64,000 nt of DNA from Longimicrobiales bacterium (GTDB lineage: Bacteria > Gemmatimonadota > Gemmatimonadetes > Longimicrobiales > Gaopeijiaceae): contig CBDFIQ010000001.1 of the NCBI GenBank assembly GCA_965248195.1, forward strand, positions 96,001 through 160,000, written 5' to 3'. Made by a program: the position numbers and the translations under genes. The notes beneath the pieces are model-generated. The model did not search any database. It had not been told where the DNA came from and worked only from the letters and a program-made list of their open reading frames with translations. Position 1 is the first letter of the stretch. Each line of letters begins with the position of its first letter. Positions 106-21,674 of the stretch are shown here, piece after piece.

Positions 106-198
106 ACTTAACGTTCAGAGGTTGCCGGCGCGGCGCCTCCGGCGCCGTGCTCTCCGGAGCGAACATAGTGAGCGTAGGCGGCAACCTACTTGTTATGA
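106..198 (-). repeat. attC-like cassette recombination site
   Basis: Minus strand: TCATAAC-AAGTA-GGTTGCCG...CGGCAACC-TCTGAAC-GTTAAGT, just downstream of the higA stop. Near-identical to the site at 1023-1115. Confidence 0.85.
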
Positions 199-220
199 GT
201 CGTGCGACCGATTGCACAAC

Positions 221-607
221 TCAATCGTCGATGCCAAGCAAGATATCGGCGGGGATCCCAAGGAGGCGCCTCAGTCCCTCAACCTGAGCCTTGGAAAGTT
301 CTCGTTTGCCATTCAGGAAGTCCGATACGCGGCTCTTTCCACCCATCACCTGATCGAGATCCGAGCGGTCCAGTTCCTTCTGCTCCAGCATGAACGTCAC
401 GGCCTGCTGGGGCGTCACCGAACCCATGGGGTAACGCTCGTCCTCGTAGTGCTCCACCAATACCGAGAGGAATTCCAGCCGGTCGTAGCCCTCACTCCCA
501 GGCTCGACGTCCTCGTCTACCAGTTGTTCGACCTCCGCAATCGCGGCCTCATACTCCGCGTCGCTCCTCAAGACATGTGGCTTCGAGAAGTCCAGTACCG
601 TTGTCAT
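221..607 (-). CDS. higA: HigA-type antitoxin (HTH)
   Basis: EYEAAIAEVEQL...RLEFLSVLVEHYE and C-terminal HTH GGKSRVSDFLNGKRELS. GGAGGAG RBS upstream of ATG 607; follows a HigB-like toxin. Confidence 0.85.
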   Translation of the reverse strand: MTTVLDFSKPHVLRSDAEYEAAIAEVEQLVDEDVEPGSEGYDRLEFLSVLVEHYEDERYPMGSVTPQQAVTFMLEQKELDRSDLDQVMGGKSRVSDFLNGKRELSKAQVEGLRRLLGIPADILLGIDD

Positions 608-626
608 AATGCGTCTCCTCCCGCGC

Positions 627-923
627 TCACAGCGCTCCTTCAATCGACTTCCGGTCGTACTCCTCATGCGTCAGCACGTGACGGACGTACACTCGTCTGA
701 GATCGTATCGCATATCGACGACCAATCGATACTTGTTCCCACCAATGTTGAAGATCGTCCGACGCGCACCTAGAAAGCTCGCCGTCGGAAAGTCCGCCCG
801 TAGCTCGTGGGGCGATCGATAGTCTTGCGACTTGATGATCCGGTACCACGCATCCAGTGGAGCCTCAGCGTCAGCGTGTTTCTCGGCGAACTGGCGTAAA
901 GGCCTCCGCGAGATGATCCGCAC
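627..923 (-). CDS. higB: HigB-type mRNA interferase toxin
   Basis: RIISRRPLRQF...FNIGGNKYRLVV...VLTHEEYD motifs; toxin-first operon with higA. Confidence 0.88.
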   Translation of the reverse strand: MRIISRRPLRQFAEKHADAEAPLDAWYRIIKSQDYRSPHELRADFPTASFLGARRTIFNIGGNKYRLVVDMRYDLRRVYVRHVLTHEEYDRKSIEGAL

Positions 924-1022
924 CGCCACTCCCCACCAAACAAGTTCCTGGATCGGAAATATACATTACCAACATGGGAACATCGTCACCTGAGGTCAAC
1001 TCCAGTCCGTAGGGAGCATGAC

Positions 1023-1115
1023 GCATAACGTTCAGAGGTTGCCGGCGCGGCGCCTCTGGCGCCGTGTCCTCCGGAGCGAACGTAGTGAGCGCAGGCGGCA
1101 ACCGCACTGTTATCG
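1023..1115 (-). repeat. attC-like site
   Basis: Minus strand: CGATAAC-AGTGC-GGTTGCCG...CGGCAACC-TCTGAAC-GTTATGC. Confidence 0.85.
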
Positions 1116-1148
1116 GACGGCGCTACCTTATCGCCAATCGCACCGGTC

Positions 1149-1229
1149 TTTAAACGAACTCGGCTGCTCTCCGCGGGCGCAGCACGCGACCCTCACGTTA
1201 TACGCGACAGTAGCAATCGCTTGTTATGC
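1149..1229 (-). repeat. Degenerate attC-like site of a more canonical type
   Basis: Minus strand GCATAAC-AAGCG-ATTGCTACTGTCGCG pairs imperfectly with CGCGGAGAGCAG. The distal core (GTTTAAA) is non-consensus. Confidence 0.45.
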
Positions 1230-1314
1230 GGCGATCCACCTGGATTAGCTCTTCGTGACGGGCGCGAGGCCGTGGAGCCCGCTTCCACGAGAGCTAGTCA
1301 TTATCCGACCACGG

Positions 1315-2028
1315 TCACGTGCAGGCACCGGACCTGAGAAGGAGCAAATGCTCGCGTCCGGGGACATCGATAAGGTGCTCTGAATTACTGAGACTGAAAC
1401 CCGGTACAGGAGTTAGCAGGCGATTACCGGGCTCGCAGTTCGTAAGGTTGGTCGTTCGGACTTGGCCAACGATCGGGATCTCCAGACACCGCCCGTTCTG
1501 ACTAACCAGGAGAGTACCGGCATCATCGTAAGCTAGACTTAGGAACTTGACGCCAACCAGAGTGAAATCAAAAGCGGGAGTGACCCCGGCGGGCATACGA
1601 ACGGAGCCGTCTCGCCTCGCGAGCTCCGCACAACTCGGACACCCCACCACCAAGGCGTCCCCTTCTAGAACCAACGTGCCCGTTGATGTCAACACGATCG
1701 GTTCGCGCTCGTTCGAGAAGCCTGCCACGGCGACAGAAGCCTGACCAAGGGATGTGCAATACATGCCGCCGGTGTAGCCCGACACAACTACCTCCAACGA
1801 GTCTGGTGAAGACCCGTCAGGCACGCGCACGCGAAATTCCGAGTAACCCCTTGCGTCCTCAGGCCCACGGCTGATGAGAATCGAGGCGAGATCTCGCACG
1901 CTAATCTCCATCTCCACGCAGCCCAGTTCATCACCAGGGCACTCTGAAAGCAGGCTGACTTCTTGGGATGAGCTCGGATGTGCGACGCAAGCAAGCGTAC
2001 TGACCAGAAGTATCGAAGACGAACGCAT
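1315..2028 (-). CDS. Cassette hypothetical exported protein or lipoprotein
   Basis: ORF between att-like sites. N-terminus MRSSSILLVSTLAC is signal/lipobox-like; Cys-rich. Start uncertain. Confidence 0.55.
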   Translation of the reverse strand: MRSSSILLVSTLACVAHPSSSQEVSLLSECPGDELGCVEMEISVRDLASILISRGPEDARGYSEFRVRVPDGSSPDSLEVVVSGYTGGMYCTSLGQASVAVAGFSNEREPIVLTSTGTLVLEGDALVVGCPSCAELARRDGSVRMPAGVTPAFDFTLVGVKFLSLAYDDAGTLLVSQNGRCLEIPIVGQVRTTNLTNCEPGNRLLTPVPGFSLSNSEHLIDVPGREHLLLLRSGACT

Positions 2029-2192
2029 GCGCTTTCTCCAATCGCGGGCCCAGGGCGAGTCCATTCTTAACGGTATGGAGCCCTTCTGTGAGGAACAAGC
2101 GTGATTACCGAAGAACCAACGACAATCTGCCGAAGATGCACACCTGCCGACCGCCGCATAACTACTGATTCTACCACACCCCACTCGTTCTC

Positions 2193-3568
2193 GGTCAAGT
2201 CCCGATTTGTGTGTAAAAGCGGAGGAAGCTCCTCGCCTTCGGCTAGGCTGCTTGGGCGACCTCCTGTTTCTGGAGGAGTGAGAGGTCGAGGTAACGCCGG
2301 TCGCCCCAGACGTGTGTGGTCCTGAGTGCGACGGCCGTGATGAGCCTGAGGGCGCTGGCCCGGTCCGGGAAGGCGCCGGCGGCCTTGATCCTGCGTTTGA
2401 TCTCGCCGTGCAGCCGCTCGAGGCTGTTGGTGGTACGCAGCCGGGGCCAGTGCGCCTCGGGGAACGCGTAGAACTGCGTCGCTGCCCCGAAGCCCCGCTC
2501 CAGGACCTCCACGGCCTCGGGCAGCTCCTTCTTCCAGCGTGCGCCGAACTCGCCCAGGAGCTTCTTCGCCTCGGCGAGTCCGGATGTCTGGAAGATCACC
2601 GAGACCTCACGCGCCACGCGCTTGCGTAGGCGGTGGGGGACCCTCGCCCCCACATTACGCTGCAGATGGACCGTACACCTCTGACGGCGTGCCTCGGGCA
2701 GGAAGCGGCGGACCGCAGCTGCCAGGCCTGCGTGCTCATCGGCGATCACGAGCTCGACACCGCCGAGGCCGCGGTCCTGGAGTTGCTCGAGGAGCTCCGA
2801 CCAGCTCTGCTGCGACTCCTCAGCGCCCAGCGTGACGGCCAGGAGCCGTCGGTGACCCTCAGGGCCCACTGCATACGCCACGAGCGCACTCACGTTCTCG
2901 ACTTTGCGGGCCCAGCGGGCGTCCAAGAACGTGGCGTCCAGGTACAGATAGGGGTGAGGCCCCTCGATCGGCGCACGGCGCAGCCCTTCCACGGCCTCGT
3001 CGAGCCGTTTTGCCACACGACTCACCGTCGAGCGCCCAACACGCTCGCCCATCAGCGCCTCGGTGACGTCGCCCATCTTGCGCTGTGACACGCCGCTCAC
3101 ATACGCCTCGACCATCATCTCGTCGAGCTCGGGGCTCCTGCGCTGGTAGCGGCCGATCACGTCGGCCGGCGAACCGTTGTCCCGGCTCCGGGGCATGGCG
3201 ACCTCGATCTGCCCCAGGCTCGTCAGCAGCCGCCTCAGGTATGTGCCGTTCCTATGGTCCTTCCGGCTTCCCACCCGCTCGAAGCGGCGTGCACCTACCA
3301 TGGCCTTCAGCTCCTCTTCCAGCACCATCTCGAGCGTCAGCCGGATCGCGCCTTGAAACAGCTCGCGCAAATCATCGCGTAGCTCGTCTTGCGTGGCCCG
3401 ACCGATCTCCACAATCTCTTGCATCGGAAGCTCCTCTCCGGTTCCGAGCCTGCTCTGCAGACCCGGACTCCCGGGTTCATGTGACAGTGAACAACAACAG
3501 AGGAGCTTCCGTTTTTCTTTCCCTCCTGTCCAGCTTATCCGCTTTTACACAAATCTAGGGACACTACC
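2193..3568 (-). mobile_element. IS256-family insertion sequence, copy 1 (1376 bp)
   Basis: Imperfect terminal IRs GGTCAAGTCCCGATTTGTGTGTAAAAGCGGA / GGTAGTGTCCCTAGATTTGTGTAAAAGCGGA. 9-bp target duplication CTCGTTCTC at 2184-2192 and 3569-3577. Confidence 0.93.
2243..3424 (-). CDS. IS256-family (mutator-type DDE) transposase
   Basis: RNG..R, YLDAT, IADEHAGL, QRCTVH and TTNSLERLHGEIKRR motifs; 393 aa. Confidence 0.93.
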   Translation of the reverse strand: MQEIVEIGRATQDELRDDLRELFQGAIRLTLEMVLEEELKAMVGARRFERVGSRKDHRNGTYLRRLLTSLGQIEVAMPRSRDNGSPADVIGRYQRRSPELDEMMVEAYVSGVSQRKMGDVTEALMGERVGRSTVSRVAKRLDEAVEGLRRAPIEGPHPYLYLDATFLDARWARKVENVSALVAYAVGPEGHRRLLAVTLGAEESQQSWSELLEQLQDRGLGGVELVIADEHAGLAAAVRRFLPEARRQRCTVHLQRNVGARVPHRLRKRVAREVSVIFQTSGLAEAKKLLGEFGARWKKELPEAVEVLERGFGAATQFYAFPEAHWPRLRTTNSLERLHGEIKRRIKAAGAFPDRASALRLITAVALRTTHVWGDRRYLDLSLLQKQEVAQAA

Positions 3569-3585
3569 CTCGTTCTCGCGCTGTC

Positions 3586-3739
3586 GTCTAACGTTCTAGA
3601 GTTCCGAACCGGCGCGTCCGCATGCGCACCGGTTCAGCTCTCTTCACTGACTTCCTGCACTGCTTCCTGGCTCACCACCGTTCGCGCCGGTTTCTCCGGA
3701 GCGGCCACAGGCCGCGTAGGCGGAACTCGTTTGTTAGGC
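3586..3739 (-). repeat. attC-like site (long form)
   Basis: Minus strand: GCCTAAC-AAAC-GAGTTCCG...CGGAACTC-TAGAAC-GTTAGAC. Confidence 0.85.
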
Positions 3740-3773
3740 GCTGCGCGCTCCAGGTCACCAGACCAAGCCTCAT

Positions 3774-4265
3774 TCACGACCCTTTTGGATCAAGGACCCG
3801 ATAGGGCACCCCAATCCACGCGCCGGTTGAATCGGTCCGGAGAAAGAACCGAACCTCGCATTCCCGCTCGAAGAGTCTGAAGAGGGGGATCCCTTCGAAT
3901 TCCCAACTGACCCTTACGACATCCGACTGCCCAGCGTCTAGCACGAAGGGCCCATAGGCCTCGGCCCCGGTCGAGAAGGTCCTCGCAGTGAAGACCTCAG
4001 TCCCCGCCGCGAGAGCGATTGAGTCAATCGCCACTGGGACGAGCGTTGGGTTTTCGAACCGGATCCGAACAGAGGCCCATTCGTTGCCGACTAGTCCACC
4101 AATTCGTCCGGTTTCCGCGACGATTAGACCAACCCTCCCAACCCATGTGGCAGAATCAGTTTGGGTCCATTCGGCTGGTGCGATGTCGATCCCTGGATCA
4201 CAGGCAAGGAGAGCGAGGATCATCCCGCTACACCCGATTCGACAGACTCGCCACCACCGCATCAT
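3774..4265 (-). CDS. Cassette hypothetical lipoprotein
   Basis: Lipobox-like ILALLAC. The cassette begins GTTAGGCGCT and ends AGCGCCTAAC (perfect complement). Confidence 0.6.
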   Translation of the reverse strand: MMRWWRVCRIGCSGMILALLACDPGIDIAPAEWTQTDSATWVGRVGLIVAETGRIGGLVGNEWASVRIRFENPTLVPVAIDSIALAAGTEVFTARTFSTGAEAYGPFVLDAGQSDVVRVSWEFEGIPLFRLFERECEVRFFLRTDSTGAWIGVPYRVLDPKGS

Positions 4266-4296
4266 CCCCTGAAATTCTCCTTAGGTATTGAGTAGC

Positions 4297-4455
4297 GCCT
4301 AACGTTTCAGGACTCCGAACTGGCCCCGTCCAAAACGATTCCAGCCTCAGCTCTCTGCGAAGCAACACCTTCGTTCCCCGACCCCATTCTGCCCATGGGC
4401 CAGTTGGGTCGAAGGCCGCCGTCAGGCGGCCGAAGCCGGAGTCCGATTGTTATAT
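4297..4455 (-). repeat. attC-like site (long form)
   Basis: Minus strand: ATATAAC-AATC-GGACTCCG...CGGAGTCC-TGAAAC-GTTAGGC. Related to 3586-3739. Confidence 0.85.
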
Positions 4456-4528
4456 GCCGTCGCTTCCAAGGGAGGTAGTCAGGCCAACCTACACGACCTT
4501 GCGAGTATGCGTCTCAGTCTTTGGGCTG

Positions 4529-5104
4529 CTACCACACCTTCCACCAAGGCCGTGACCTCCTCGGAGCAAGGTCGGCGAAGACCCTCGGGGCGGCCTTCAA
4601 GGGGCCCACTGGATCCTCGTCGTGCTTGAAGCCAGTGATCTCCTTCGCCGCGAGCAACGGCAAGTCGAACACGAAATCGACCTCGGCTCGACCTGCGTCC
4701 TCCTTCTTCTGCTCCTCGAATATGCCTTGGCGCAGTTCGTCAAAGCCCTCCGGCAGCTCCCCTCTCAGCTCGAGCTCGTACTTCCCCTTCTGGGCGTCAT
4801 GCGCCAGCCGCCAAACTTCGCTCCCGCCTTTCCAGTACGCGGCCGAGCTATACATGACGTGCTCCTCCACTGCGCAGGCGACACAGCTATACCGCTGAGA
4901 AAGGGACCTGAGGAACTCCGGGTCGACCAGACGATGGTCGCATCGCTGACCAACGAGCACGAACCATCCCCCTTCCAGGGCACAGCCTGAGATGGAGGCT
5001 TCGAAGTAGGGATCGGGCTCTGCACTCGGCTCGATACGTGCCTCTTGGAACAGCGCGGACGGATCCTCTGTCTCCACTGCAAGCCATGCGATGGCGTAGC
5101 CCAC
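4529..5104 (-). CDS. Cassette hypothetical protein
   Basis: 191-aa ORF with GGAGG RBS, ending RPWWKVW and filling the space between two att-like sites. Confidence 0.7.
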   Translation of the reverse strand: MGYAIAWLAVETEDPSALFQEARIEPSAEPDPYFEASISGCALEGGWFVLVGQRCDHRLVDPEFLRSLSQRYSCVACAVEEHVMYSSAAYWKGGSEVWRLAHDAQKGKYELELRGELPEGFDELRQGIFEEQKKEDAGRAEVDFVFDLPLLAAKEITGFKHDEDPVGPLKAAPRVFADLAPRRSRPWWKVW

Positions 5105-5175
5105 TATTCGGCCTCCCTGTTCAACTGCACGGGTCTAGTCATGGATCGCGTAGCCAAGCGCAGCCTGGCGATGGC

Positions 5176-5269
5176 GCATAACGTTCAAAGTTGCCGTCGC
5201 GGCTCGCGAACGCGAGCCGTGATCGTCGTAGTGAGCGCAGCGAACGAAGCCGGCAACTGTTTGTTAGCC
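5176..5269 (-). repeat. attC-like site
   Basis: Minus strand: GGCTAAC-AAAC-AGTTGCCG...CGGCAACT-TTGAAC-GTTATGC. Confidence 0.85.
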
Positions 5270-6563
5270 GGCGTCCGTAGCATCAAGACGACTCAGCAGT
5301 GCCACAACCTCCTCGGCAGTCGGCATCGGAGCGGATAGGACCTCGTCGATGACCACGCTTAGGTCCTGCCTGATCTCTTGCAGTAGTTCGTCGGCAAGGA
5401 GCACAGCAGTGGCTGAGAAGGACCGCCCGGCGTCCTCGAATTCGAGCCAGACGGGGTCCGTCACAAACGACCGTTGTTGAGGGATCTTGGTGAATCTGAC
5501 GTCTACGATCCAAGCACATCCGCGACGCAACGACGGGCGACACGGCTTCCCCCGCGATCCGCGTTCCGTAGGGCAGAATCCGCCGGAGCGACCCGTGCAA
5601 CGCCGTTCCCCTCGCCCGCAGTGGGTCGCCTGGAGGAGCAGGGGGCTTCGGTGGCCCATTCACGGTGGCCAGCGTGTGTACCTGCACACCAACCGGAAAG
5701 CTCACTCGAAGTGACACGTCACTAGCCGGCGCCGTCCCGTCGTTCCGCACCCTGAACCGCAGCGGTTGCAGGTGCACCGTGCTCTGGAGGTATTGATTCA
5801 GCGAATTCAGCCACGTGCCGACCGCTGCGAGATAGGTCGAGATTCTACGCTCCTCATCTCGCGCCTCCGGTGGAATGAGCGCAGGATCGAAGTTTTTGAA
5901 GCGCTTTGAGGGGTCGGGGTACTTGGCCTCTATAGAAGTCGCCACACCACGAATCAGAGAATCAGGGAAGCGGAGCGCCTGTCGCGGCCACTCGATTTCG
6001 AGTATCGGGCCCTCACCGAAATCCACGTGCAGGTCAGGGCGACGTGCCCTCTCCTTTTCAAGTTCGGCCTTTAGGCGCCTGATCTCATGGACCTGGGGGT
6101 CCTGCGATGCCGGTAGTGAGTAGCGAGACGGCATGTCCCACGCACGGATACCGACAAGCCCTGCGGCTATCCTGGGCGTAACATCATGAGTTACCAACCC
6201 CACCGCATGAGCTGACTCCTGCAGACGCAACCCGATCGCCACGAGGCGATGATCCGGGTTGGAGCGACTCAGGTTAAGCGCCTCGAAGTCCGCCTGAGGC
6301 TGCAGCGAGCAGAATTCTAGGAGCGTCCCATCGGACAGCTTGATCGGCGACCCTGACGACTGGATCTTCTCGATCAGCCCCAGGATCCGCCGAGCCCGGT
6401 CGCGGCGTCGCGCGTTCGGGTGGGCATCCTTGAGCTCGTCCAGCTCCTCGAGGTTGACCCAGGTCATCCTCACCGCTTCCACCTGACAACCTGCGACCTC
6501 CGCCCAGTCTGCGCCCTCGAAGTCGAAGTGCAGCAGGACGTTGGTATCGACGATGATATTCAT
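5264..6563 (-). pseudogene. PIN-domain protein cassette, apparently frameshifted (~5520-5640)
   Basis: N-terminal IIVDTNVLLH, EELDELK, NPDHRLV and LVTHD PIN motifs. The plausible C-terminus is in another frame, whose TAA falls in the att core GGCTAAC. Confidence 0.65.
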
Positions 6564-6616
6564 ACCAACTCTCACTCCTCAATCACCCGTCTCCACCTCC
6601 TCACAGTGCGGATGCC

Positions 6617-6709
6617 GGCTAACGTTCCAGGGTGCCGACGCGGCTCGCAACGCGAGCCGTGTTCTCCGGAGCGAACGCAGTGAGCGCAGGCGGCACCCGT
6701 GTGTTAACT
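6617..6709 (-). repeat. attC-like site
   Basis: Minus strand: AGTTAAC-ACAC-GGGTGCCG...CGGCACCC-TGGAAC-GTTAGCC. Confidence 0.85.
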
Positions 6710-6719: not shown

Positions 6720-7541
6720 CTATCCCCCTGCGCCTATTCTGGACACCGTGTCGGCGGAGTCCGCCATGGCTCTCAACTTGGCCGGGAAGCCAGTTCCGCA
6801 GATCTGCTCCAGAGGATAAGGGGACTCCTGGGGTTTCTGAAACAAGGAGTCCATTTCTGCCGCCTTGCGTCGGTACACGTCGGCTCGAACTCTGTATCTT
6901 CCAGGGGGTGCCACTTCACTCAAGGACTCGCCAACTACCCGGAAGTACCTGGGCCAGTACGCTTCTTCGCCACAAATCGATGGAACGGCGCCTCCGCACT
7001 CGATCAGTGGGTATGCTCCGCCCTCGAATGTCTCGATGACATACTGACCGTCCTCTCGACGTAGGTTCCCGGCAATGCATTCGTCGAACGGGATTAAGAG
7101 CAACTCGGGCCCTTCATTGGTGGAGAGCACCGCCGCGGTGGCATTGGTCTCTTCGTAGCCCAACGACCAAAAGAGGTCTGTTCGACCATCCCCATTCAGG
7201 TCGGCGAGAGCGACCTCCGGCCTCCCTCCGTAGAGGTCTCCCGACCGCCAATATTCGTCGGTTCCAATAGCCCAAAGCACTTGGTGGTCATACACACCGA
7301 TCGGATCGAGGAACACGCTGTCCACACCCGTTGCGGAAATGAGCACTCGTTCGCGGCCCTGTTGAACGGACTGGGTAACGGGCGAATCTGCAACCAGATC
7401 TGCCGATCCCGCCTCAGTGGATCTTGCGGCTGAAGAGTTCTCCCCCCTTTGCGACTCCGGTCCGCACGCAACGAAACCCAACCCCGTCGCGGCTATCAGA
7501 AATGGCGTCAGCTTCAAAGACCTAATCCTCGTCGAAAGCAT
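6720..7541 (-). CDS. Cassette hypothetical lipoprotein
   Basis: Lipobox GLGFVAC and an FG-GAP/Ca-loop-like ADLNGDGRTDL. The cassette begins GTTAACTGAC and ends GTCAGTTAAC. Confidence 0.65.
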   Translation of the reverse strand: MLSTRIRSLKLTPFLIAATGLGFVACGPESQRGENSSAARSTEAGSADLVADSPVTQSVQQGRERVLISATGVDSVFLDPIGVYDHQVLWAIGTDEYWRSGDLYGGRPEVALADLNGDGRTDLFWSLGYEETNATAAVLSTNEGPELLLIPFDECIAGNLRREDGQYVIETFEGGAYPLIECGGAVPSICGEEAYWPRYFRVVGESLSEVAPPGRYRVRADVYRRKAAEMDSLFQKPQESPYPLEQICGTGFPAKLRAMADSADTVSRIGAGG

Positions 7542-7544
7542 GTC

Positions 7545-7631
7545 AGTTAACGAATAAGGATTGTTTCCGAACTCTACGGAAGAGCGGGCAGGAAGGCGAG
7601 GTAGTGCGAGTGCGGAAAGGATCCGTTGAAC
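7545..7631 (-). repeat. att-like site at the left end of the recombinase/Y2-transposase module
   Basis: Minus strand: GTTCAAC-GGATCC-TTTCCGCACTC...GAGTTCGGAAA-CAATCCTTATTC-GTTAACT; 10/11-bp stem. Confidence 0.7.
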
Positions 7632-7648
7632 GAAGCCGCTACGTGGTG

Positions 7649-9024
7649 GGTAGTGTCCCTAGATTTGTGTAAAAGCGGATAAGCTGGACAGGAGGGAAAG
7701 AAAAACGGAAGCTCCTCTGTTGTTGTTCACTGTCACATGAACCCGGGAGTCCGGGTCTGCAGAGCAGGCTCGGAACCGGAGAGGAGCTTCCGATGCAAGA
7801 GATTGTGGAGATCGGTCGGGCCACGCAAGACGAGCTACGCGATGATTTGCGCGAGCTGTTTCAAGGCGCGATCCGGCTGACGCTCGAGATGGTGCTGGAA
7901 GAGGAGCTGAAGGCCATGGTAGGTGCACGCCGCTTCGAGCGGGTGGGAAGCCGGAAGGACCATAGGAACGGCACATACCTGAGGCGGCTGCTGACGAGCC
8001 TGGGGCAGATCGAGGTCGCCATGCCCCGGAGCCGGGACAACGGTTCGCCGGCCGACGTGATCGGCCGCTACCAGCGCAGGAGCCCCGAGCTCGACGAGAT
8101 GATGGTCGAGGCGTATGTGAGCGGCGTGTCACAGCGCAAGATGGGCGACGTCACCGAGGCGCTGATGGGCGAGCGTGTTGGGCGCTCGACGGTGAGTCGT
8201 GTGGCAAAACGGCTCGACGAGGCCGTGGAAGGGCTGCGCCGTGCGCCGATCGAGGGGCCTCACCCCTATCTGTACCTGGACGCCACGTTCTTGGACGCCC
8301 GCTGGGCCCGCAAAGTCGAGAACGTGAGTGCGCTCGTGGCGTATGCAGTGGGCCCTGAGGGTCACCGACGGCTCCTGGCCGTCACGCTGGGCGCTGAGGA
8401 GTCGCAGCAGAGCTGGTCGGAGCTCCTCGAGCAACTCCAGGACCGCGGCCTCGGCGGTGTCGAGCTCGTGATCGCCGATGAGCACGCAGGCCTGGCAGCT
8501 GCGGTCCGCCGCTTCCTGCCCGAGGCACGCCGTCAGAGGTGTACGGTCCATCTGCAGCGTAATGTGGGGGCGAGGGTCCCCCACCGCCTACGCAAGCGCG
8601 TGGCGCGTGAGGTCTCGGTGATCTTCCAGACATCCGGACTCGCCGAGGCGAAGAAGCTCCTGGGCGAGTTCGGCGCACGCTGGAAGAAGGAGCTGCCCGA
8701 GGCCGTGGAGGTCCTGGAGCGGGGCTTCGGGGCAGCGACGCAGTTCTACGCGTTCCCCGAGGCGCACTGGCCCCGGCTGCGTACCACCAACAGCCTCGAG
8801 CGGCTGCACGGCGAGATCAAACGCAGGATCAAGGCCGCCGGCGCCTTCCCGGACCGGGCCAGCGCCCTCAGGCTCATCACGGCCGTCGCACTCAGGACCA
8901 CACACGTCTGGGGCGACCGGCGTTACCTCGACCTCTCACTCCTCCAGAAACAGGAGGTCGCCCAAGCAGCCTAGCCGAAGGCGAGGAGCTTCCTCCGCTT
9001 TTACACACAAATCGGGACTTGACC
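7649..9024 (+). mobile_element. IS256-family insertion sequence, copy 2 (1376 bp, inverted relative to copy 1)
   Basis: Same ends and identical transposase as copy 1. Flanks ACGTGGTG / ACGTGGGG (8-bp duplication, one mismatch). Confidence 0.93.
7793..8974 (+). CDS. IS256-family transposase
   Basis: Protein identical to that of 2243-3424. Confidence 0.93.
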   Translation: MQEIVEIGRATQDELRDDLRELFQGAIRLTLEMVLEEELKAMVGARRFERVGSRKDHRNGTYLRRLLTSLGQIEVAMPRSRDNGSPADVIGRYQRRSPELDEMMVEAYVSGVSQRKMGDVTEALMGERVGRSTVSRVAKRLDEAVEGLRRAPIEGPHPYLYLDATFLDARWARKVENVSALVAYAVGPEGHRRLLAVTLGAEESQQSWSELLEQLQDRGLGGVELVIADEHAGLAAAVRRFLPEARRQRCTVHLQRNVGARVPHRLRKRVAREVSVIFQTSGLAEAKKLLGEFGARWKKELPEAVEVLERGFGAATQFYAFPEAHWPRLRTTNSLERLHGEIKRRIKAAGAFPDRASALRLITAVALRTTHVWGDRRYLDLSLLQKQEVAQAA

Positions 9025-9214
9025 ACGTGGGGCTATGGAGATTGGAAGGCCGTCGAACTGGCTCCGGATGGCCTGAGGCACGCGAGATGGTGGACGGAGC
9101 CACCGAAGAGAGTGGGGATCGGGCTCCGACACGACCATGTGGGAAGTGATGAAGGGGCTGTGGCCGACGTAGGCACAGTCGGGTCCATCGCCGCCGTTGA
9201 GGAACAGCCACGTA

Positions 9215-10423
9215 TCAGGATGCGACACGGTGGACCCATGGGTTCGGAGGAGGAGGTCGCCCGAGGACCTGCACACACTGTAGCACGCCCTTTCTACAGC
9301 TGGGACAGACGTGCAGATCACGAGGCCGTAGATCGAGGAGGATCTCATCGCCATCGAGGGACTCTGGTTGCGGATCGAGGGAGACTGCTGGCTGCCCGAG
9401 TGCCTCGCGAGAGCATGCGAGCAGTCGAGCGCGGCTGGCGTTGGCGAAGATCCCGTAGTAGCGGATACGCACGAAGCCCTTCGGTAAGACGTGTAGCAGG
9501 AAGCGACGGGCGAACTCGTGGAGGGGAAGCATGAGAGTCCGGGCCCTGCGACCTCGGTAGTCCTTGTAGCGGAAGCACACAGACTGGTCGTCTACGTGGA
9601 GCAGACGATGGTTCGAGATCGCGACTCGGTGGGTATAGCGAGCCAGGTACTCGAGAACGGGCTTCGGACCGTCGAAGGGGGGTTTGGCATAGACGACCCA
9701 CTCAGTCTGGCGAGCCGCGTTGAGGTGGCGCGCGAACGCCGCGCGTGAGCGGTAGCGGGCGAGGGCACCGTGCAACTCGAGGCTCCCGTCCCGAAACGCA
9801 TCCCAGAGTCCTGCGGTGAACTTTCCCCGGAACAAACGACTGAGCACGCGCACCGGCAGGAAGAAGCCCGGCCGACAAGGACGCCATGTACGGTCACCTT
9901 CCGCCAGGCCGCCCGCTGGGACAACGCAGTGTACGTGCGGATGATGGACCAGCGTCTGGCCCCAAGTATGCAGGACGGCGAAGAACCCGATCCGTGCGCC
10001 GAGATGCTTCGGGTTCAGGGCGACATCCTGCAGCGTCCGCCCCACGGTACGAAGCAGGAGACCGTAGAAAACGCGTGGGTTCTGCAGCGCCAACGGTGCC
10101 AGGCTCTGCGGCACAGTGAAGACGACGTGCGCGTAGGGCACAGGTAACACCTCGGCCTGGCGTGCCTCGAGCCAGTCCGCTTGGGCACTACCCTGGCACT
10201 TTGGACAGTGACGGTTGCGGCACGAGTTGTACGAGATCCTCCGGTGACCGCAGGCGTCGCAGGCGTCGATGTGACCACCCAGCCGTGCGGTTCGGCAGGC
10301 GGTGATCGCCTCGACGACCGCACGTTGCTCCCAACTCCATCTCGCCCCGGATCCCAGCGAGCGCGGCGCTTCGCGGTACTCTTGGAAGACCTCGGCAAGC
10401 TCGTGCCGGGGTCGCTTGGTCAC
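9215..10423 (-). CDS. IS91-family Y2/HUH rolling-circle transposase with Zn-binding N-domain
   Basis: CDACG...SCRNRHCPKC zinc domain, LHTWGQ, HPHVH (HUH), YLARY (Y-x3-Y) and HVLPKGFVRIRYYG. Confidence 0.92.
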   Translation of the reverse strand: MTKRPRHELAEVFQEYREAPRSLGSGARWSWEQRAVVEAITACRTARLGGHIDACDACGHRRISYNSCRNRHCPKCQGSAQADWLEARQAEVLPVPYAHVVFTVPQSLAPLALQNPRVFYGLLLRTVGRTLQDVALNPKHLGARIGFFAVLHTWGQTLVHHPHVHCVVPAGGLAEGDRTWRPCRPGFFLPVRVLSRLFRGKFTAGLWDAFRDGSLELHGALARYRSRAAFARHLNAARQTEWVVYAKPPFDGPKPVLEYLARYTHRVAISNHRLLHVDDQSVCFRYKDYRGRRARTLMLPLHEFARRFLLHVLPKGFVRIRYYGIFANASRARLLACSREALGQPAVSLDPQPESLDGDEILLDLRPRDLHVCPSCRKGVLQCVQVLGRPPPPNPWVHRVAS

Positions 10424-11278
10424 CTACTCCGTTGGCTCGAACTCCGAGCTCAAGGCATCCAGAGGACTCTTAATCGAACGGAGCCGTGCCGTGGCCACGT
10501 GCGTGTAGATCGCCGTGGTCTGGAGCGCCCGGTGACCGAGCAGCGTTTGGATCATCCGCAGATCCGTGCCCGACTCCAGCAGGTGCGTCGCGTAGCTGTG
10601 ACGGAGCGTACGGGGTGTCACCCGCTTCGTGATCCCCGCTCGCGCACCGGCCGCCCCGATCACTCGTTGTACCGTCCGGCTCGTGAGCGGCTGGTCCGGA
10701 GCGCGTCCGTAGAACAGCAAGCTCCTTGGCCTGTACATACGCCAATATGCCCGCAGCGTCGCCAGCAACACGCCCGACAGGACCACCTGCCGGTCCTTGT
10801 CCCCCTTGCCGTGGCGCACGGTGATCACCATCCGGTCACTATCGATGTCGCGCACTTGCAGCCCCAGCACCTCGCTGGTCCTCAGCCCGCCACCGTACAG
10901 CGTCATTGCCATCGCCCGGTGCTTCAGGTTCCCTACCCCCTTGAGCAGACGTCCGACCTCCTCCGGGCTTAGCACCACCGGGTTGCGTCTCTTCTGTCGC
11001 GGGTAGGGGAGGTGGGGCAACAGCTCCGGCCGGTCCAGCGTCACACGGTACAGGAACCGCATTGCCCCCACCGCCTGCTTGAACGCCGAACGCGATACGT
11101 CCCGCTCCTCCTTCAGGTACCGCAGGTATCCGCGTATCTCTTCGCGGCCCAGCGTGTCCGGAGATCGCCCGAAGTGCTGCGCCATCTCGGCGACACGTCT
11201 GATGTAGATCGCCTGCGTGCGCTCTGCGTAGTTCCGGACCCTCAGATCCGTCAGCATCTTCTGCCGTAGCTCGCTCAT
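10424..11278 (-). CDS. Tyrosine recombinase (IntI/XerD-related, lacking the IntI-specific insertion)
   Basis: RNYAERT N-domain, YGGGLRTSE, HGKGDKDR, RTLRHSYATHLLE and LLGH...TTAIY; GAGGAGG RBS; 284 aa. The stop abuts the transposase start. Confidence 0.92.
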   Translation of the reverse strand: MSELRQKMLTDLRVRNYAERTQAIYIRRVAEMAQHFGRSPDTLGREEIRGYLRYLKEERDVSRSAFKQAVGAMRFLYRVTLDRPELLPHLPYPRQKRRNPVVLSPEEVGRLLKGVGNLKHRAMAMTLYGGGLRTSEVLGLQVRDIDSDRMVITVRHGKGDKDRQVVLSGVLLATLRAYWRMYRPRSLLFYGRAPDQPLTSRTVQRVIGAAGARAGITKRVTPRTLRHSYATHLLESGTDLRMIQTLLGHRALQTTAIYTHVATARLRSIKSPLDALSSEFEPTE

Positions 11279-11407
11279 CGGTCCCTCCTCGACTGGGTTG
11301 CGTTGGGGCACGCAACCTACTCGCCCAGTCCTCGGAACCTCGGCCCTACTCAGACACCGGAATCACCACCCACCGCGAGCCCTCACCACCCACCGCGTAG
11401 CGGTTTA

Positions 11408-11527
11408 GTTCAACGATTTCTTCCCGAACCATATCAGATTACCCGCCGACTCGCGATGCCATCACGACGGATGTCGCCTATGCTCGGCCAAGCCGGAACG
11501 TGTCGCCCTCCGGCCCAAACGTTATGG
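11408..11527 (-). repeat. Hybrid att-like site at the right end of the module
   Basis: Cores CCATAAC...GTTGAAC are present on the minus strand, but the two arms do not pair well. Confidence 0.5.
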
Positions 11528-11543
11528 GCCATCACGCCTCAAA

Positions 11544-11870
11544 CTAGGCCGGGGACTTCGCACCGCGTCCGCCAGGGTACCGTGGGATCTTCTTGAGGAC
11601 CTCGGCTTCTGACTTCCGCGCGTGGTAGAGGTCCCAAGCGAGTTGGAGATTGAGCCAGAAATCAGAGGAAGTTCCGAAATACTGAGATAGGCGAAGCGCA
11701 GTACTTGGGGTAACTCCGCGACGTCCATTAACGATCTCGTTCACACGCTGGTAGGGAACGGCGATCGCATCTGCCAGCTGCCTCTGGGTGATCCCCATCG
11801 GTGCTAGGAACTCCTCCAGGAGCATCACTCCGGGATGCGTCGGGAGGCGATGAGTGGGCACACGAACCAT
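11544..11870 (-). CDS. higA: HigA antitoxin (VapI/addiction antidote type)
   Basis: PTHPGVMLLEEFL...RVNEIVNGRRGVTPSTALRL...FWLNLQ. Confidence 0.92.
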   Translation of the reverse strand: MVRVPTHRLPTHPGVMLLEEFLAPMGITQRQLADAIAVPYQRVNEIVNGRRGVTPSTALRLSQYFGTSSDFWLNLQLAWDLYHARKSEAEVLKKIPRYPGGRGAKSPA

Positions 11871-11878
11871 AAGAAGCC

Positions 11879-12172
11879 TCAGTGGTAATCGACGACCTGT
11901 ACGTCCTCTGGGCCGTTCGGCGTCCATCGGAAACAGATCCGGTATTGATCGTTGATTCGAATGCTATGCTCCCCTTTGCGGTCACCCTTCAGGGCCTCGA
12001 GTCGGTTTCCTGGAGGGATCCGGAGATCCTCAAGAATAGCGGCGGCAGCAAGCGCATCTAGCTTTTTCCCACCCTGCCTCCAGAGGGACTGAGGAAGCGT
12101 CCTTCGGGCCAGTTTCGTGGGGCGCCCATAGAAGAGATCCTCTGTCGCTTCGTCCTTGAAGCTTCGAATCAT
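11879..12172 (-). CDS. higB: HigB/RelE-family toxin (plasmid maintenance killer type)
   Basis: MIRSFKD...DLRIPPGNRLEALKGDRKGEHSIRINDQYRICFRW...VDYH. Confidence 0.92.
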   Translation of the reverse strand: MIRSFKDEATEDLFYGRPTKLARRTLPQSLWRQGGKKLDALAAAAILEDLRIPPGNRLEALKGDRKGEHSIRINDQYRICFRWTPNGPEDVQVVDYH

Positions 12173-12173
12173 A

Positions 12174-12200
12174 TAGCATGATAGCCGGGATATCGTGCTA
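12174..12200. promoter_or_regulatory. Palindromic operator upstream of higBA
   Basis: TAGCATGATA-N7-TATCGTGCTA (9/10 inverted repeat) directly before the higB ATG. HigA autorepression is typical of the family. Confidence 0.6.
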
Positions 12201-12235
12201 ACACAAGAAGAACCAATTACCTGTTCGGTGATGTC

Positions 12236-12306
12236 CGATAACGGTCCAGGCGCTCCCGACGTGGAGCGAAGCGTAGGTCCGCGGAGCGGCCAGGCCCTCG
12301 TTGGGG
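12236..12306 (-). repeat. attC-like site (short)
   Basis: Minus strand CCCCAAC...CGCTCC...GGAGCG...GTTATCG. The cassette start GTTATCGGACATCAC matches the cassette end at 11521 (GTTATGGGCCATCAC) at 13/15. Confidence 0.7.
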
Positions 12307-12482
12307 TCAACGGCGGCGCGAAGTGAGCCGTCCTTGGCGCGGCAACCAACGACCGCGACAAAGTCACGGACCCTAAACCCATAACGGCTCCAGCCACGGC
12401 GGACCGAAGCGTTGGGACCAGTCTTCAGGTTCTCCAGCCGTTCGCACGTGATCCAAGTCGCGCACGGGTGGCGACTCTGACA

Positions 12483-16121: not shown

Positions 16122-18491
16122 ATGCTCAGGTCAACGCACTCTGCGGCCGCCGTCGTGGCGGCCCTGGCGGCTGGCTGGCTGGCCAGCGACGTCGCGGCGC
16201 AGAGCGCGACGGGGTATCGCGCCTTGCTCGACGAGTACTGCGTCACCTGTCACAACCAGCGCACGGTCGACGACCGGAGTGAGCAGATCACCCCCCTGAG
16301 GTCACAGCTCCGCGCGGTCGGTCTGGCGCTCGACGCGCTGGAGCTGTCCGCGGTGGCTACCGACGCCGCCCACTGGGAGCCGGTCGTGCGCAAGCTGCGG
16401 GCCGGGCTGATGCCGCCCGCCGGGCGGCGGCGTCCCGACCAGGCGACGCTCGACGAGTTCCGCGCTTGGCTCGAGACCGAGCTCGATGAGGCAGCCGCGG
16501 CCCGTCCGGACCCGGGACGGACAGCCACGTTCCACCGGCTGAACCGGGCCGAGTACAGCAACGCCATCCGCGACTTGCTGGCGCTGGAGATCGACGTCGA
16601 CGACTTCCTTCCGGCAGACGACGCCGGCTTCGGGTTCGACAACATCGGCGGCGTGCTGCGCATGTCGCAGTCGTTGCTGGAGCGTTATCTGGACGCATCA
16701 CGCACCATCAGCCGGCTCGCGGTCGGTAGCCCACCGCCGGCGCCGTTCTCCCAGACGTTCCGGACCGCTCAGGACGAGCAGCAGCATGAGCGGGCCGGCG
16801 AGCTGCCGTTCGGCACGCGTGGCGGGATGCTCGTGTCCTACCAGTTTCCGCTCGATGCCGACTACGACCTGAGTATCCAGCTGAGCGGCACCCGCGGGTT
16901 GCGGGAGGAGCACCGGCTCGAGGTGACGGTCGATGGCGAGCCGGTCGAGCTGCCCACCCTGGAGCCCGGTTCCACCATCGAGCTGCGGGTGCCGGTGGCG
17001 GCCGGACGGCGCGACATCGGGGTGGCGTTCTATCGCAATCCACCGGTGCTCGTCGAGCAGGTCCGGGAACGCTTTCAGAATCCGCGCACATCAGGGAACA
17101 GCGGCGGGCCGGGCGGCTCGATGCCGTTCGTCACTAGCCTCACCATCGCTGGTCCGTACGACGCTCGCGGTCCAGGCAGTACGCCGAGCCGTGACCGGAT
17201 CTTCGTCTGCCGACCGGCGACGGTCTCCGAGGAGACGGGATGCGCCCGCACGATCCTGTCCGGTCTGGCCCGGCAGGCCTATCGTCGGCCGGTCACCGAT
17301 GCCGACATCGAGGTTCTGCTCGAGTTCTACGAGATGGGCCGAGCCAATGGCGCGCACTTCGAGAGCGGCGTCGAGCTGGCGCTCAGGCGGTTGCTCGTCA
17401 GCCCAGAGTTCCTGGTCCGCATCGAGGCGGACCCATCAGGCGTTGCGCCCGACACTCCCTACAAGGTGACTGACATCGAGCTGGCCTCCCGCTTGTCGTT
17501 CTTCCTTTGGAGCAGCATCCCGGACGCCGAGCTGCTTGATGTGGCCGAGCGAGGAGCGCTCAGCCAGCCGGCGGAGCTCGAGCGGCAAGTGCGTCGCATG
17601 ATCGCCGATCCTCGCTCGAAGGCGCTGACCACCAACTTTGCCGGCCAGTGGTTGCAGCTCAGGAACCTCGCGACCGTGATTCGGCCGGGTGATCCCTACT
17701 CGCTCGCGTTCGATGAGACGCTACGTCAGGCGATGATCACCGAGACGGAGCTGTTCTTCGACCACGTGGTACGACAGGACCGCGGGGTCCTCGAGCTGCT
17801 GACCGCCGACTACACGTATCTGAACGGACGCCTGGCCGGGCACTACGACATCCCCAACGTCCAAGGCGCACACTTCCGGCGGGTCGTGTTCCTGGCTAAT
17901 AGCCCCCGCGGGGGGCTGCTGGCACACGGCAGCATCCTGACCCTGACCTCGCACGCGATCCGGACGTCGCCGGTGCTGCGTGGCAAGTGGATCCTGAACA
18001 CCATCCTCGGCACACCGCCGCCCGATCCGCCGCCGAACGTCCCGGCGCTCGTCGACCAGAAGACCCAGGCCAAGTTGGGAACGATGCGTGAGCGGATGGA
18101 TGCCCACCGGTCCAACCCGGTGTGTGCGGCGTGCCACGCGATGATCGACCCGGCCGGGTTCGCTCTCGAGGGCTTCGACGCCATCGGCCGGTCCCGGGTG
18201 GTCGACGAGTCGTTCAACGACCTCGACACCTCCGGGACGCTCCCCGACGGTACCGCGTTCGACGGCGCAGCGGAGCTCCGGGCCGCATTGGTCGCGCACC
18301 CGGAGCGGTTCGTCGGCACCGTCACCGAGAAGCTGATGACCTACGCGCTGGGTCGGGGCCTCGACTACTACGATATGCCGGCGGTCCGCCGTATCGTTCG
18401 AGAAGCGGAGACCGAGGGCTACGGCATGCAGTCGATCATCGTCGGCATCGTAAACAGCTATCCGTTCCTGCACAGGAGATCCGAGTCATGA
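16122..18491 (+). CDS. DUF1592/DUF1588-type (planctomycete PSD/PSCyt) cytochrome c domain protein
   Basis: CVTCH and CAACH heme motifs; RLNRAEYSNAIRDLL, ELASRLSFFLW and TSPVLRGKW. Confidence 0.88.
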   Translation: MLRSTHSAAAVVAALAAGWLASDVAAQSATGYRALLDEYCVTCHNQRTVDDRSEQITPLRSQLRAVGLALDALELSAVATDAAHWEPVVRKLRAGLMPPAGRRRPDQATLDEFRAWLETELDEAAAARPDPGRTATFHRLNRAEYSNAIRDLLALEIDVDDFLPADDAGFGFDNIGGVLRMSQSLLERYLDASRTISRLAVGSPPPAPFSQTFRTAQDEQQHERAGELPFGTRGGMLVSYQFPLDADYDLSIQLSGTRGLREEHRLEVTVDGEPVELPTLEPGSTIELRVPVAAGRRDIGVAFYRNPPVLVEQVRERFQNPRTSGNSGGPGGSMPFVTSLTIAGPYDARGPGSTPSRDRIFVCRPATVSEETGCARTILSGLARQAYRRPVTDADIEVLLEFYEMGRANGAHFESGVELALRRLLVSPEFLVRIEADPSGVAPDTPYKVTDIELASRLSFFLWSSIPDAELLDVAERGALSQPAELERQVRRMIADPRSKALTTNFAGQWLQLRNLATVIRPGDPYSLAFDETLRQAMITETELFFDHVVRQDRGVLELLTADYTYLNGRLAGHYDIPNVQGAHFRRVVFLANSPRGGLLAHGSILTLTSHAIRTSPVLRGKWILNTILGTPPPDPPPNVPALVDQKTQAKLGTMRERMDAHRSNPVCAACHAMIDPAGFALEGFDAIGRSRVVDESFNDLDTSGTLPDGTAFDGAAELRAALVAHPERFVGTVTEKLMTYALGRGLDYYDMPAVRRIVREAETEGYGMQSIIVGIVNSYPFLHRRSES

Positions 18492-19898: not shown

Positions 19899-21674
19899 GT
19901 GAAGACCGCCGGGGCGATGAGCACGGTCTGGGTGGCTGTGGCGGCGTTGCTGTTCAGCGGCGCCACGCTGGCGGGGCCGGAGGTGCCGCTGGTGGACGTG
20001 CCACTGCCGGGCATCCCTCTCCTAGACCTGCCCCCTGTGGACGTCCCGCCGCCGGACGTCCCGCTAATCGACGCGGTGCGGCGTGGTGACACCGACGCAG
20101 CACGCGCCCTGCTTGACGGCGGTGCCGACGTCGATGCGACAGCGCCGGACGGCGCCACGGCTCTGCTGTGGGCCGTGCACACCGACCAGCCCGAACTGGT
20201 GGGGCTGCTGCTCGAGGCCGGGGCCGATGTCGAGATCACCAACCGCTACGGGGTCGGCCCGGCGTCGCTGGCGGCCGAGAACGGCAACGCGGAGATTCTC
20301 GAGCGTCTCCTCCAGGCCGGTGTCTACGCCAATCACGCGCTGCCGGGCGGTGAGACGCTGCTGATGACCGCCGCTCGTACGGGCGAGCCGGAGACGGTGC
20401 GGACCCTGCTGGCGCACGGGGCCGATCCGAACCACCGGGAGATTACCCGGGGCCAGACGGCGCTGATGTGGGCCGCCGCCAACAACAACGCCGCTGCAAT
20501 CGGAGTGCTTGCTGAGCAGGGTGCGGACATCCACGCGAAGACCGATTACCCGTCGGGGAGCACCGACCGCACGTTCGCCTATGCGCCCCCCACCGGCTTC
20601 TCACCGTTGATGTTCGCGGTCCGCGCTGGGCACATCGAGGCCACCCGGGTACTGCTCAATGCCGGGGCGGACGTTAACGACGCCGTGTCGGACGGACAAA
20701 GCGCCTTAGTCGTGGCGACGGCCAACGCCAACTGGGAGCTGGCGGCTTATCTTCTCGACCGCGGCGCCGATGCCACCCGCGCCGAGGCCGGCTGGAACGC
20801 CCTGCACCAGACCGTGCGAACTCGCAGGATGAACCTCGGGTTCGGCACACCGGGCCCGTTCTCGTCCGGGACGCTCGACAGCATCGACCTGATCCGGAGG
20901 CTCCTGGACGCCGGAGTCGACGTGAACGCCCGGATGACCCGCAACGGGATGCGTGACGGACAGCGCAACCGGTTCAACCGGCTCGGGGCCACCGCGTTCA
21001 TGCTGGCGGCCAAAGTGACCGACGTCGAGGCGATGCGGCTGCTACTTGGGGCGGGCGCCAACCCGACGATTCCGACCGCCGACGGCACCACCCCGTTGAT
21101 GGTCGCCGCCGGTCTGGCCATCTGGAACCCGGGCGAGGATGGCGGCTCGTTTACCGGGCAGGAAGCGGAGGTCCTCGAGGCGGTCCGGATCACTCTCGAG
21201 GGCGACAACGACGTCAACGCTCGCAACTACCGTGGCGAGACCGCCCTCCATGGGGTCGGCTTCCGGGGCGTGAACATCGTGCTCGACTATCTCGTGGAGC
21301 AGGGTGCCGACCTGACTGCGCTGACCGTCGACGGCTGGTCGGCCCTCGCGATCGCCCGGGGGCTCAGCTACACGGACTTCTATAAGGCCCAGGTGCACAC
21401 CGCGGCCCGGCTCGAGGAGCTGATGGAGGCCCGCGGGCTCGACACCGAGGGCGGGGCGCACCGGGTGCCGGGGTCCGTCTGCTACGACTGCCTGCAGACC
21501 CGGCGCGACCAGATCCGCACGGTAGCGGAGCGCGACGAGTGGATGGAAGCCAACTTCGACCCCGCCAGCCACGCCATCCAGATGATGCCCGAGTGGAGCT
21601 CGCTACCGTTTCCGCCCTCCGCCGAGCACGTAGACACGGCCACACTGGGCCGCAGGCCTGCAGGACCCTTTTGA
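19899..21674 (+). CDS. Ankyrin-repeat protein
   Basis: Repeated G.TAL.WA / LL.AGADVN motifs; usual third gene of this cluster. Confidence 0.88.
   Translation: MKTAGAMSTVWVAVAALLFSGATLAGPEVPLVDVPLPGIPLLDLPPVDVPPPDVPLIDAVRRGDTDAARALLDGGADVDATAPDGATALLWAVHTDQPELVGLLLEAGADVEITNRYGVGPASLAAENGNAEILERLLQAGVYANHALPGGETLLMTAARTGEPETVRTLLAHGADPNHREITRGQTALMWAAANNNAAAIGVLAEQGADIHAKTDYPSGSTDRTFAYAPPTGFSPLMFAVRAGHIEATRVLLNAGADVNDAVSDGQSALVVATANANWELAAYLLDRGADATRAEAGWNALHQTVRTRRMNLGFGTPGPFSSGTLDSIDLIRRLLDAGVDVNARMTRNGMRDGQRNRFNRLGATAFMLAAKVTDVEAMRLLLGAGANPTIPTADGTTPLMVAAGLAIWNPGEDGGSFTGQEAEVLEAVRITLEGDNDVNARNYRGETALHGVGFRGVNIVLDYLVEQGADLTALTVDGWSALAIARGLSYTDFYKAQVHTAARLEELMEARGLDTEGGAHRVPGSVCYDCLQTRRDQIRTVAERDEWMEANFDPASHAIQMMPEWSSLPFPPSAEHVDTATLGRRPAGPF

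Follow-up and report, generated by a model that had tools for sequence, protein, structure and literature searches.

Bulge-free attC-like sites in a Longimicrobiales cassette array and a proposed recombinase partner that lacks the I2 insertion

The stretch analysed here (64,000 nucleotides, positions 96,001 to 160,000 of contig CBDFIQ010000001.1, or C1, in assembly GCA_965248195.1 of a Longimicrobiales bacterium; hereafter the window) contains six hairpin repeats between positions 109 and 6706, which are probably cassette recombination sites of the attC kind that form a distinct family free of bulged bases and lie here in an orphan fragment of an array. Integrons are defined by the I2 element of their integrase, IntI, which reads the extrahelical bases (EHBs) of attC sites. 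The enzyme that we propose as the partner of the six sites is not IntI; it is a tyrosine recombinase without I2, whose gene stands at the head of such arrays in related genomes.

Anatomy and covariation of the sites

Read on the + strand, each site opens with TAAC and closes with GTTA; an 8-base box stands 6-7 bases after the TAAC, its exact complement stands 4-5 bases before the GTTA, and the middle between the two varies. The minus-strand reading is TAAC-N4/5-box...box'-N6/7-GTTA. All six have the AAC...GTT type of R box (TAAC/GTTA in 6/6) and an unpaired central spacer, 6-7 nt on one arm and 4-5 nt on the other, and GTTRRRY is exact in three of the six on the cassette strand. The extrahelical base of the attC L box has no counterpart here, as 0/6 sites have an insertion or deletion in the L box. 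A covariance model built from these six + strand sites scores them at 95.7 bits (site 1, 109-195, with R box TAAC/GTTA, an 8-9 bp bulge-free L box and an inner hairpin, ending a HigB/helix-turn-helix (HTH) cassette), 96.7 bits (site 2, 1026-1112), 89.5 bits (site 3, 3589-3736, a long form with two inner hairpins), 63.2 bits (site 4, 4300-4452, also a long form), 97.7 bits (site 5, 5179-5266) and 103.3 bits (site 6, 6620-6706).

When the six sites are aligned with MAFFT, all eight L-box pairs are intact in 6/6; five of the pairs vary on both sides and three (CCG/CGG) are constant. The observed covariation score was reached by 0 of 500 column shuffles, and sliding the partner arm by 1-3 columns lowers the pairing from 96% to 33-52%. 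A second co-varying helix of nine pairs starts on the 5' arm one mismatch past the box, and about 30 partly conserved bases, which form an extra small hairpin in the long sites, lie between this helix and the 3' box. The strict site pattern is found at nine places in the 4.86-Mb genome: the six sites, with no further occurrence in the window, and three others, two of which belong to the family by the covariance model. A chance origin of the six-site pattern is negligible.

The covariance model finds nine sites in this genome, the six in the window and three at the start of contig 2 (C2), and it has matches in 33 of 101 related genomes (23/60 of the same family, 0/20 of a second family and 9/20 of a third; the tally includes G080, which is flagged unpublished). 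Seventy sites from eight genomes were aligned by fitting to the model, and for that reason the alignment leans towards the model structure. In this set L-box indels are absent (0/70), the L box is fully Watson-Crick paired in 55/70 sites and takes 26 distinct sequences, and the 5' spacer is longer than the 3' spacer in 69/70. A second subtype, with the box GCGCTCCCG, shares the site architecture, and the same architecture follows recombinases of the family discussed below in an Ignavibacteriota metagenome-assembled genome (MAG) and in Flavobacteriaceae records.

A preliminary description, made from the DNA of the window alone, had placed six sites at these positions with TAAC/GTTA ends, listed their boxes with an exact complement on the other arm and read the box changes as compensatory, and all of this is confirmed by the analysis above. 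The new covariance model that it called for now exists. Two of its generalisations hold within the window and not beyond it: the CCG/CGG part of the box is not invariant in the relatives, where the commonest box is GGTTGGCG (27/70 sites), and the right spacer, always 2 nt longer in its reading, has an excess of 2-3 nt in 65/70 sites of the wider family. Folding, which it had named as the way in which normal extrahelical bases might come to light, shows none inside the box; in unconstrained folds sites 1 and 2 do show one unpaired base on the 3' arm, which is produced by a 2-bp mini-helix in the spacer.

Array-head recombinases and canonical integrons in related genomes

Arrays of these sites begin 0.5-1.4 kb downstream of a co-directional tyrosine recombinase gene in genomes G082, G096, G074, G084 and G055, and the same adjacency, 0.5-1.5 kb overall, is found in G064, G047 and the Gemmatimonadaceae MAG record L095 (eight sites), making eight genomes in all. 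These array-head recombinases match the integron integrase model TIGR02249 only at positions 1-178 and 235-314, with scores below its cut-off. Their closest solved relative is IntI4 of Vibrio cholerae (2a3v), to which they align in two stretches, with 21 residues where IntI4 has 63 (residues 177-239). As judged from these alignments, the array-head recombinase is without the insertion of about 40 residues that holds I2; its catalytic motifs are kept and it has a conserved N-terminal extension. In a recombinase tree (a quick search without bootstrap) 17 canonical IntI sequences form one clade (Shimodaira-Hasegawa-like approximate likelihood ratio, SH-aLRT, 100) with the I2-less forms outside it; 25 array-type sequences and that of the IS91-type element of the window (see below) form an unresolved comb around the IntI clade, and all of these are split from the XerC/D proteins of this genome (SH-aLRT 98). 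At ten of 11 recombinase loci a small inverted repeat lies 90-250 nt past the stop codon and is followed 8-10 bases on by GTTA(Y), a site that is a plausible counterpart of attI. The nearest protein-atlas clusters of the array-head recombinase are commonest in Bacteroidota, and its Bacteroidales relatives are 34-38% identical. We note a weak match to the site model (7105-7196, 23.1 bits) in a distant phylum, in the Thermodesulfobacterium MAG record L092; its orientation is the expected one, and it stands 1.2 kb downstream of the gene for an array-type recombinase.

Canonical IntI, taken as a TIGR02249 score at or above 265 bits, is encoded in 27 of the 101 relatives, and these loci serve as an internal control. 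The model, run with filters off over 23 canonical IntI loci from 21 genomes (one locus in G061, flagged unpublished), finds no family site; the best match there has 18.4 bits, where family members score 32-103 bits, and the weak matches near IntI give no fold. The five attC sites that do lie downstream of canonical IntI, in G049 and at two loci of G096, are of another type: when folded, 5/5 have two successive one-base bulges on the 3' arm, separated by 5-7 pairs. Two such bulges occur in 0/70 family sites, and a single bulge, arising from a 2-bp spacer helix, in 6/70, window sites 1 and 2 among them. The lack of a canonical extrahelical base, a central claim of the preliminary description, is thereby borne out, since the L box is bulge-free in all sites and the paired bulges of the IntI-adjacent attC are missing from the family. 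G096 has both systems, with each site type beside its own recombinase; G049 also has both recombinase types and both site types, but its family sites are on another contig. The prediction that the hairpins serve a different recombinase thus finds support in the adjacency to the I2-less enzyme in eight genomes and in the 23 IntI loci. The window itself does not have the adjacent IntI with insertion that would make a complete integron, as the sole IntI-like piece of this genome is a remnant about 1 Mb away, with its insertion region kept, 238.7 bits over profile positions 120-307 and two TAG stops.

A separate observation concerns the surroundings of canonical intI: a repeated unit coding for a 191-aa protein has two to four copies no more than 15 kb from it in two genomes of the same genus (L181, in G006:C7, and L180, in G011:C2), with proteins 98% and 68% identical to the product of the open reading frame (ORF) C2:6655-7230. 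This unit is possibly a further mobile element with integron sites as its targets.

Cassettes, inserted elements and state of the array

Each interval between sites holds one minus-strand ORF or toxin-antitoxin pair, and all ORFs lie on the same strand. Their stops are 14-200 nt ahead of a site and their starts 35-97 nt past the previous one; third-position GC is 0.60-0.76 in the cassettes, compared with mostly 0.75-0.88 (range 0.55-0.88) in window genes beyond 14 kb. Integron cassettes are laid out in this way, the minus strand here being the coding ("top") strand, and the cassettes are putatively promoterless. Cassette 1 (221-929) encodes a HigB-type toxin (627-929, PF09907, 5.3e-30) and an HTH antitoxin-like protein (221-667, PF01381, weak). 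The ORFs of cassettes 2 (1315-2184, 289 aa), 3 (3774-4265, 163 aa) and 4 (4529-5104, 191 aa) belong to no family, that of cassette 5 (5283-6575, 430 aa) has an N-terminal PIN domain (PF13638, 2.8e-9), and that of cassette 6 (6720-7541, 273 aa) has a weak FG-GAP repeat and a start codon 9 nt past the GTTA of an element end at 7548. Two more GTTAT motifs (window 1195-1235) lie in the 200 bases that separate the cassette 2 stop from site 2.

Leftward the array runs past the window start, with a second-subtype site at C1:95046-95185. Rightward lies a second HigB-like/HTH pair (11544-12397, minus strand), probably a further cassette in a decayed array head, and the array stops in a second-subtype half-site (12239-12303, + strand; the 5' half with no 3' partner), a decayed end that is followed by ordinary chromosomal genes. 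Just past the array the window encodes a 789-aa protein with the full PSD/PSCyt domain set (16122-18491; DUF1585, 1587, 1588, 1592 and 1595) and a 591-aa protein rich in ankyrin repeats (19899-21674). A second small array lies at C2:1-11700 (L021); it has three family sites, and its cassettes carry pentapeptide-repeat, SIR2-like and Fic genes.

A 1.38-kb IS256-family element has been inserted into cassette 2, directly after site 3 and 20 nt into the cassette (2193-3569, minus strand; C1:98193-99569), and a 100% identical copy (7648-9024, + strand) sits inside the IS91-type element. The genome has more than 100 near-identical copies of it over both contigs (mostly 99.9-100% identity), and the depth of Logan contigs over the element is about 100-200 times that of the flanks, so IS256 has undergone a massive recent expansion in this genome, which is probably why the recombination platform is fragmented. 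Two remnants of array-type recombinase genes are present. One is a C-terminal piece at C1:1062064-1062555; its closest relative, 91% identical, is the gene of G006, which has a half-site about 700 bp downstream. The other is an N-terminal piece of a different paralogue at about C2:3190-3760, embedded in an open frame of 1301 codons that is probably spurious beyond residue 245.

The IS91-type element occupies 7545-11414 on the minus strand. It is closed by an attC-like hairpin at 7545-7632 and bounded by terminal inverted repeats of about 27 bp that start with GTTGAAC (7626-7650 and 11391-11414), and it encodes a tyrosine recombinase of 295 aa (10424-11311) directly followed by a Y2 transposase (9215-10423) that is assigned to the IS91 family by NF033538 (425.6 bits, cut-off 125), PF04986 and PF14319. 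The recombinase scores 215.7 bits on TIGR02249 in two stretches (cut-off 265); it too is without the insertion and shares 40% identity with an array-head recombinase, and in a hidden Markov model search it falls in a lower tier, with 271 bits as against 309-598. A second copy of the element, interrupted by IS256, lies at C1:215.7-219.4 kb, and a 227-bp piece of its 5' end at C1:1062757-1062983 is joined exactly at the GTT of a GTTA-type site that follows the truncated array-type recombinase gene (C1:1062560-1062983); this joint suggests that the element integrates via the same crossover point as the cassettes. The stretch 11405-11530, upstream of the element, was tried as an attC site and forms no hairpin (folding z = 0.17 and -0.44). 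IS91-family elements with an upstream tyrosine recombinase gene are known (ISfinder descriptions), and the gene order at 9215-11311 is like theirs; unlike that known case, the element here has cassette-like ends and is an inserted guest that targets recombination sites, and not the array's own platform.

Competing explanations, related systems and meaning

We propose that each site closes one putatively promoterless minus-strand cassette of a sedentary integron-like array. The sites would be recognised as a family by the AAC/GTT R box, a spacer that is unpaired and asymmetric (its 5' arm on the non-coding strand is longer by 2-3 bases), an L box paired throughout and free of extrahelical bases, and a branched tip. 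Their cognate would be an IntI/XerA-like tyrosine recombinase without the I2 insertion and with an extra N-terminal segment, encoded at the array head in relatives. It would bind a folded single strand, probably the + strand of the window, towards which the G.T cells (40, against 15 A.C cells) of the family sites and the G after AAC lean; it would exchange strands at G|TT, and it would take its cue for polarity not from extrahelical bases but from the bulge of the spacer and the branching of the tip. An IS91-type element with cassette-like ends appears to have landed in the array fragment; both recombinase copies are broken and the platform is cut up by IS256, so what the window holds would be an orphan, and probably frozen, piece of an array.

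Published work on integron sites is in line with such a partnership. According to one paper (PMC4792948), I2 exists "to accommodate EHBs", and these bases direct strand choice and block the second strand exchange. For IntI1 and VchIntIA, a study of altered sites (PMC2727003) reports that sites stripped of their bulged bases are inserted at attI about 6-fold less efficiently and lose part of their polarity, that attC x attC excision by IntI is abolished when both partners are without EHBs, and that the spacer bulge can impose the strand once the bulged bases are deleted. Bulge-free sites with an asymmetric spacer, next to an I2-less enzyme, fit these deletion data: IntI could hardly excise such cassettes, and an enzyme that reads the spacer could. 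In a survey of tyrosine recombinases (PMC8138268), the insertion is said to be incompletely conserved within the integron-like subgroup.

Several observations weigh against the proposed partnership. The genome has no intact gene for the cognate, only the two remnants, and the one on C2 is head-to-head with the C2 array instead of co-directional; in G006, G045 and G033 the contig that carries the recombinase gene is large, and no clear array follows the gene. Folding energy decides no strand, as the model strand is the more stable in 31/70 sites and its complement in 38 (Wilcoxon p = 0.2). Co-occurrence gives a divided answer: local adjacency favours the I2-less enzyme, and presence at genome level fails to separate the two recombinases, the I2-less one (above a 300-bit line drawn after the scores were seen) being found in 15/33 genomes with model matches and 13/68 without, and canonical IntI in 12/33 and 15/68. 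Moreover, at 11 of the 23 IntI loci the contig ends within 800 bases on the 3' side, which left any cassettes there unreadable, and the 6-fold reduced insertion quoted above (PMC2727003) would allow capture by IntI in trans.

Nor was any recombination event seen in the public runs that contain the stretch, which are four runs of one sample, examined as Logan contigs. These contigs break at the sites; one joint, which connects 1226/1233 with 7548, has 21 letters behind it, probably stems from a related copy elsewhere and speaks neither for nor against excision. The other 15 public runs hold 0.05-0.17 of the sampled words of the stretch, and as IS256 makes up 0.18 of the stretch they may hold that element only. 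A tblastn search with 13 cassette proteins against 51 fetched loci found no window cassette elsewhere; the only matches were of three C2 ORFs, to the repeated element near IntI in G006 and G011.

It is against this background that an ordinary origin has to be weighed, in which the sites are attC of a classical integron whose cassettes were moved by IntI in trans and the array is a cluster of attC sites lacking an integrase (CALIN), left behind when intI decayed. The canonical AAC/GTT R box with G after AAC on the non-coding strand, the IntI remnant with its insertion region, the presence of IntI in 27/101 relatives (12 of them among the 33 with model matches), the contig breaks behind 11/23 IntI loci, where an array could lie, and the tolerance of IntI for EHB-deleted sites in insertion (PMC2727003) all agree with it. 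We nevertheless consider it rather unlikely, as none of the 23 IntI loci has a family site, the attC sites beside IntI in G049 and G096 are of the two-bulge type, the family arrays of G096 lie beside the I2-less recombinase while the family sites of G049 are on another contig, and excision between two sites that both lack EHBs fails with IntI (PMC2727003). Less likely again is that the sites are substrates of the recombinase-Y2 module at 9215-11311, and that its I2-less recombinase builds or maintains the array: that enzyme resembles an array-head recombinase in sequence and in its missing insertion, the element begins with GTTGAAC and ends in an attC-like hairpin, and its 5'-end fragment is joined at the GTT of the site after a broken array recombinase, but among the ORFs scanned beside five array-head recombinases in relatives there is no Y2 family match, and the repeated, evidently mobile element, with its IS256-interrupted copy and 5'-end fragment elsewhere on C1 and its lower tier of scores, has the look of a guest for which the sites serve as targets. 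The module, which the preliminary description had put forward as a possible partner, is not supported in that role. That the repeats are structured intergenic elements with no part in recombination, such as terminators or REP-like (repetitive extragenic palindromic) sequences, would suit their stable folds and their position just past stop codons; it is very improbable in view of the conserved AAC/GTT ends, the compensatory changes over 26 box variants, the strict spacing of one site per cassette and the recurrence, beside the arrays, of one recombinase family whose gene is followed by a GTTA site.

We return to a bulge-free site family with an I2-less array-head recombinase as its proposed partner, and compare it with known systems. 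Its arrays resemble classical integrons (including those with intI co-directional with the cassettes) in the AAC/GTT R box, the unpaired central spacer, the paired L box and variable tip, the single putatively promoterless ORF per cassette and, at the array head, a recombinase from the IntI/Xer neighbourhood with a simple GTTA site behind it. They differ from them in that the sites have no L-box extrahelical bases (0/70) and have a branched tip, and the recombinase differs from IntI in the absence of the I2 insertion of about 40 residues, a score below the TIGR02249 cut-off and an N-terminal extension. The window array is like the integrase-less clusters in having no working recombinase gene nearby and unlike them in its bulge-free site family and in its missing partner, a broken I2-less recombinase and not IntI.

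The closest published system is rAID-1 of Bacteroidales (Ross et al. 2019), in which a 5' XerD-like recombinase gene is accompanied by co-directional genes and by repeats said to recall integrons (bioRxiv 10.1101/471110) and which a 2025 preprint (10.1101/2025.05.03.651265) still describes as within Bacteroidales. The window array is integron-like and related to rAID. It shares with rAID-1 the repetitive intergenic sequences and skewed GC, and the rAID-1 type of layout (a 5' XerD-like recombinase gene and at least two co-directional genes) is seen in the eight related genomes, whereas here the gene is broken and lies elsewhere. Unlike rAID-1, these arrays are in Gemmatimonadota, the Bacteroidales relatives of their recombinase are only 34-38% identical as against the 44% identity to a B. 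fragilis reference that defines rAID-1 (bioRxiv 10.1101/471110), and the Pfam matches of the window include no immunity family of the type VI secretion system, the cassettes carrying toxin-antitoxin, PIN and family-less genes. Hairpin architecture is not described in the part of the rAID-1 source that was available (bioRxiv 10.1101/471110). Integrons as such are listed for Gemmatimonadota (PMC8618304). A full-text search, which left out subscription papers and supplements, found neither an account that links attC-like hairpins without bulges to a recombinase lacking I2 nor one that places such arrays in Gemmatimonadota.

How the pairing of I2 with extrahelical bases arose from Xer-like enzymes is an open question on which these arrays bear, and it becomes testable with natural bulge-free sites and an insertion-less enzyme that have classical integrons in the same genomes as internal controls. 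We tentatively suggest, as a possibility that is in some doubt, that I2-less relatives of IntI and bulge-free attC hairpins constitute a sister lineage to the integrons that is widespread and may be the ancestral one, occurring in Gemmatimonadota, Ignavibacteriota, Bacteroidota (with rAID-1 as one branch) and perhaps archaea; that its strand would be chosen by the asymmetric spacer and branched tip; and that classical integrons would have come from this lineage when I2 and extrahelical bases were acquired jointly, the two systems coexisting in single genomes such as G096. The finding suggests that cassette arrays are under-counted by tools keyed on the C-terminal signature of IntI, which may mislabel arrays like that of the window as integrase-less clusters, and it links the rAID-1 arrays of Bacteroidales to a broader class that extends across phyla.

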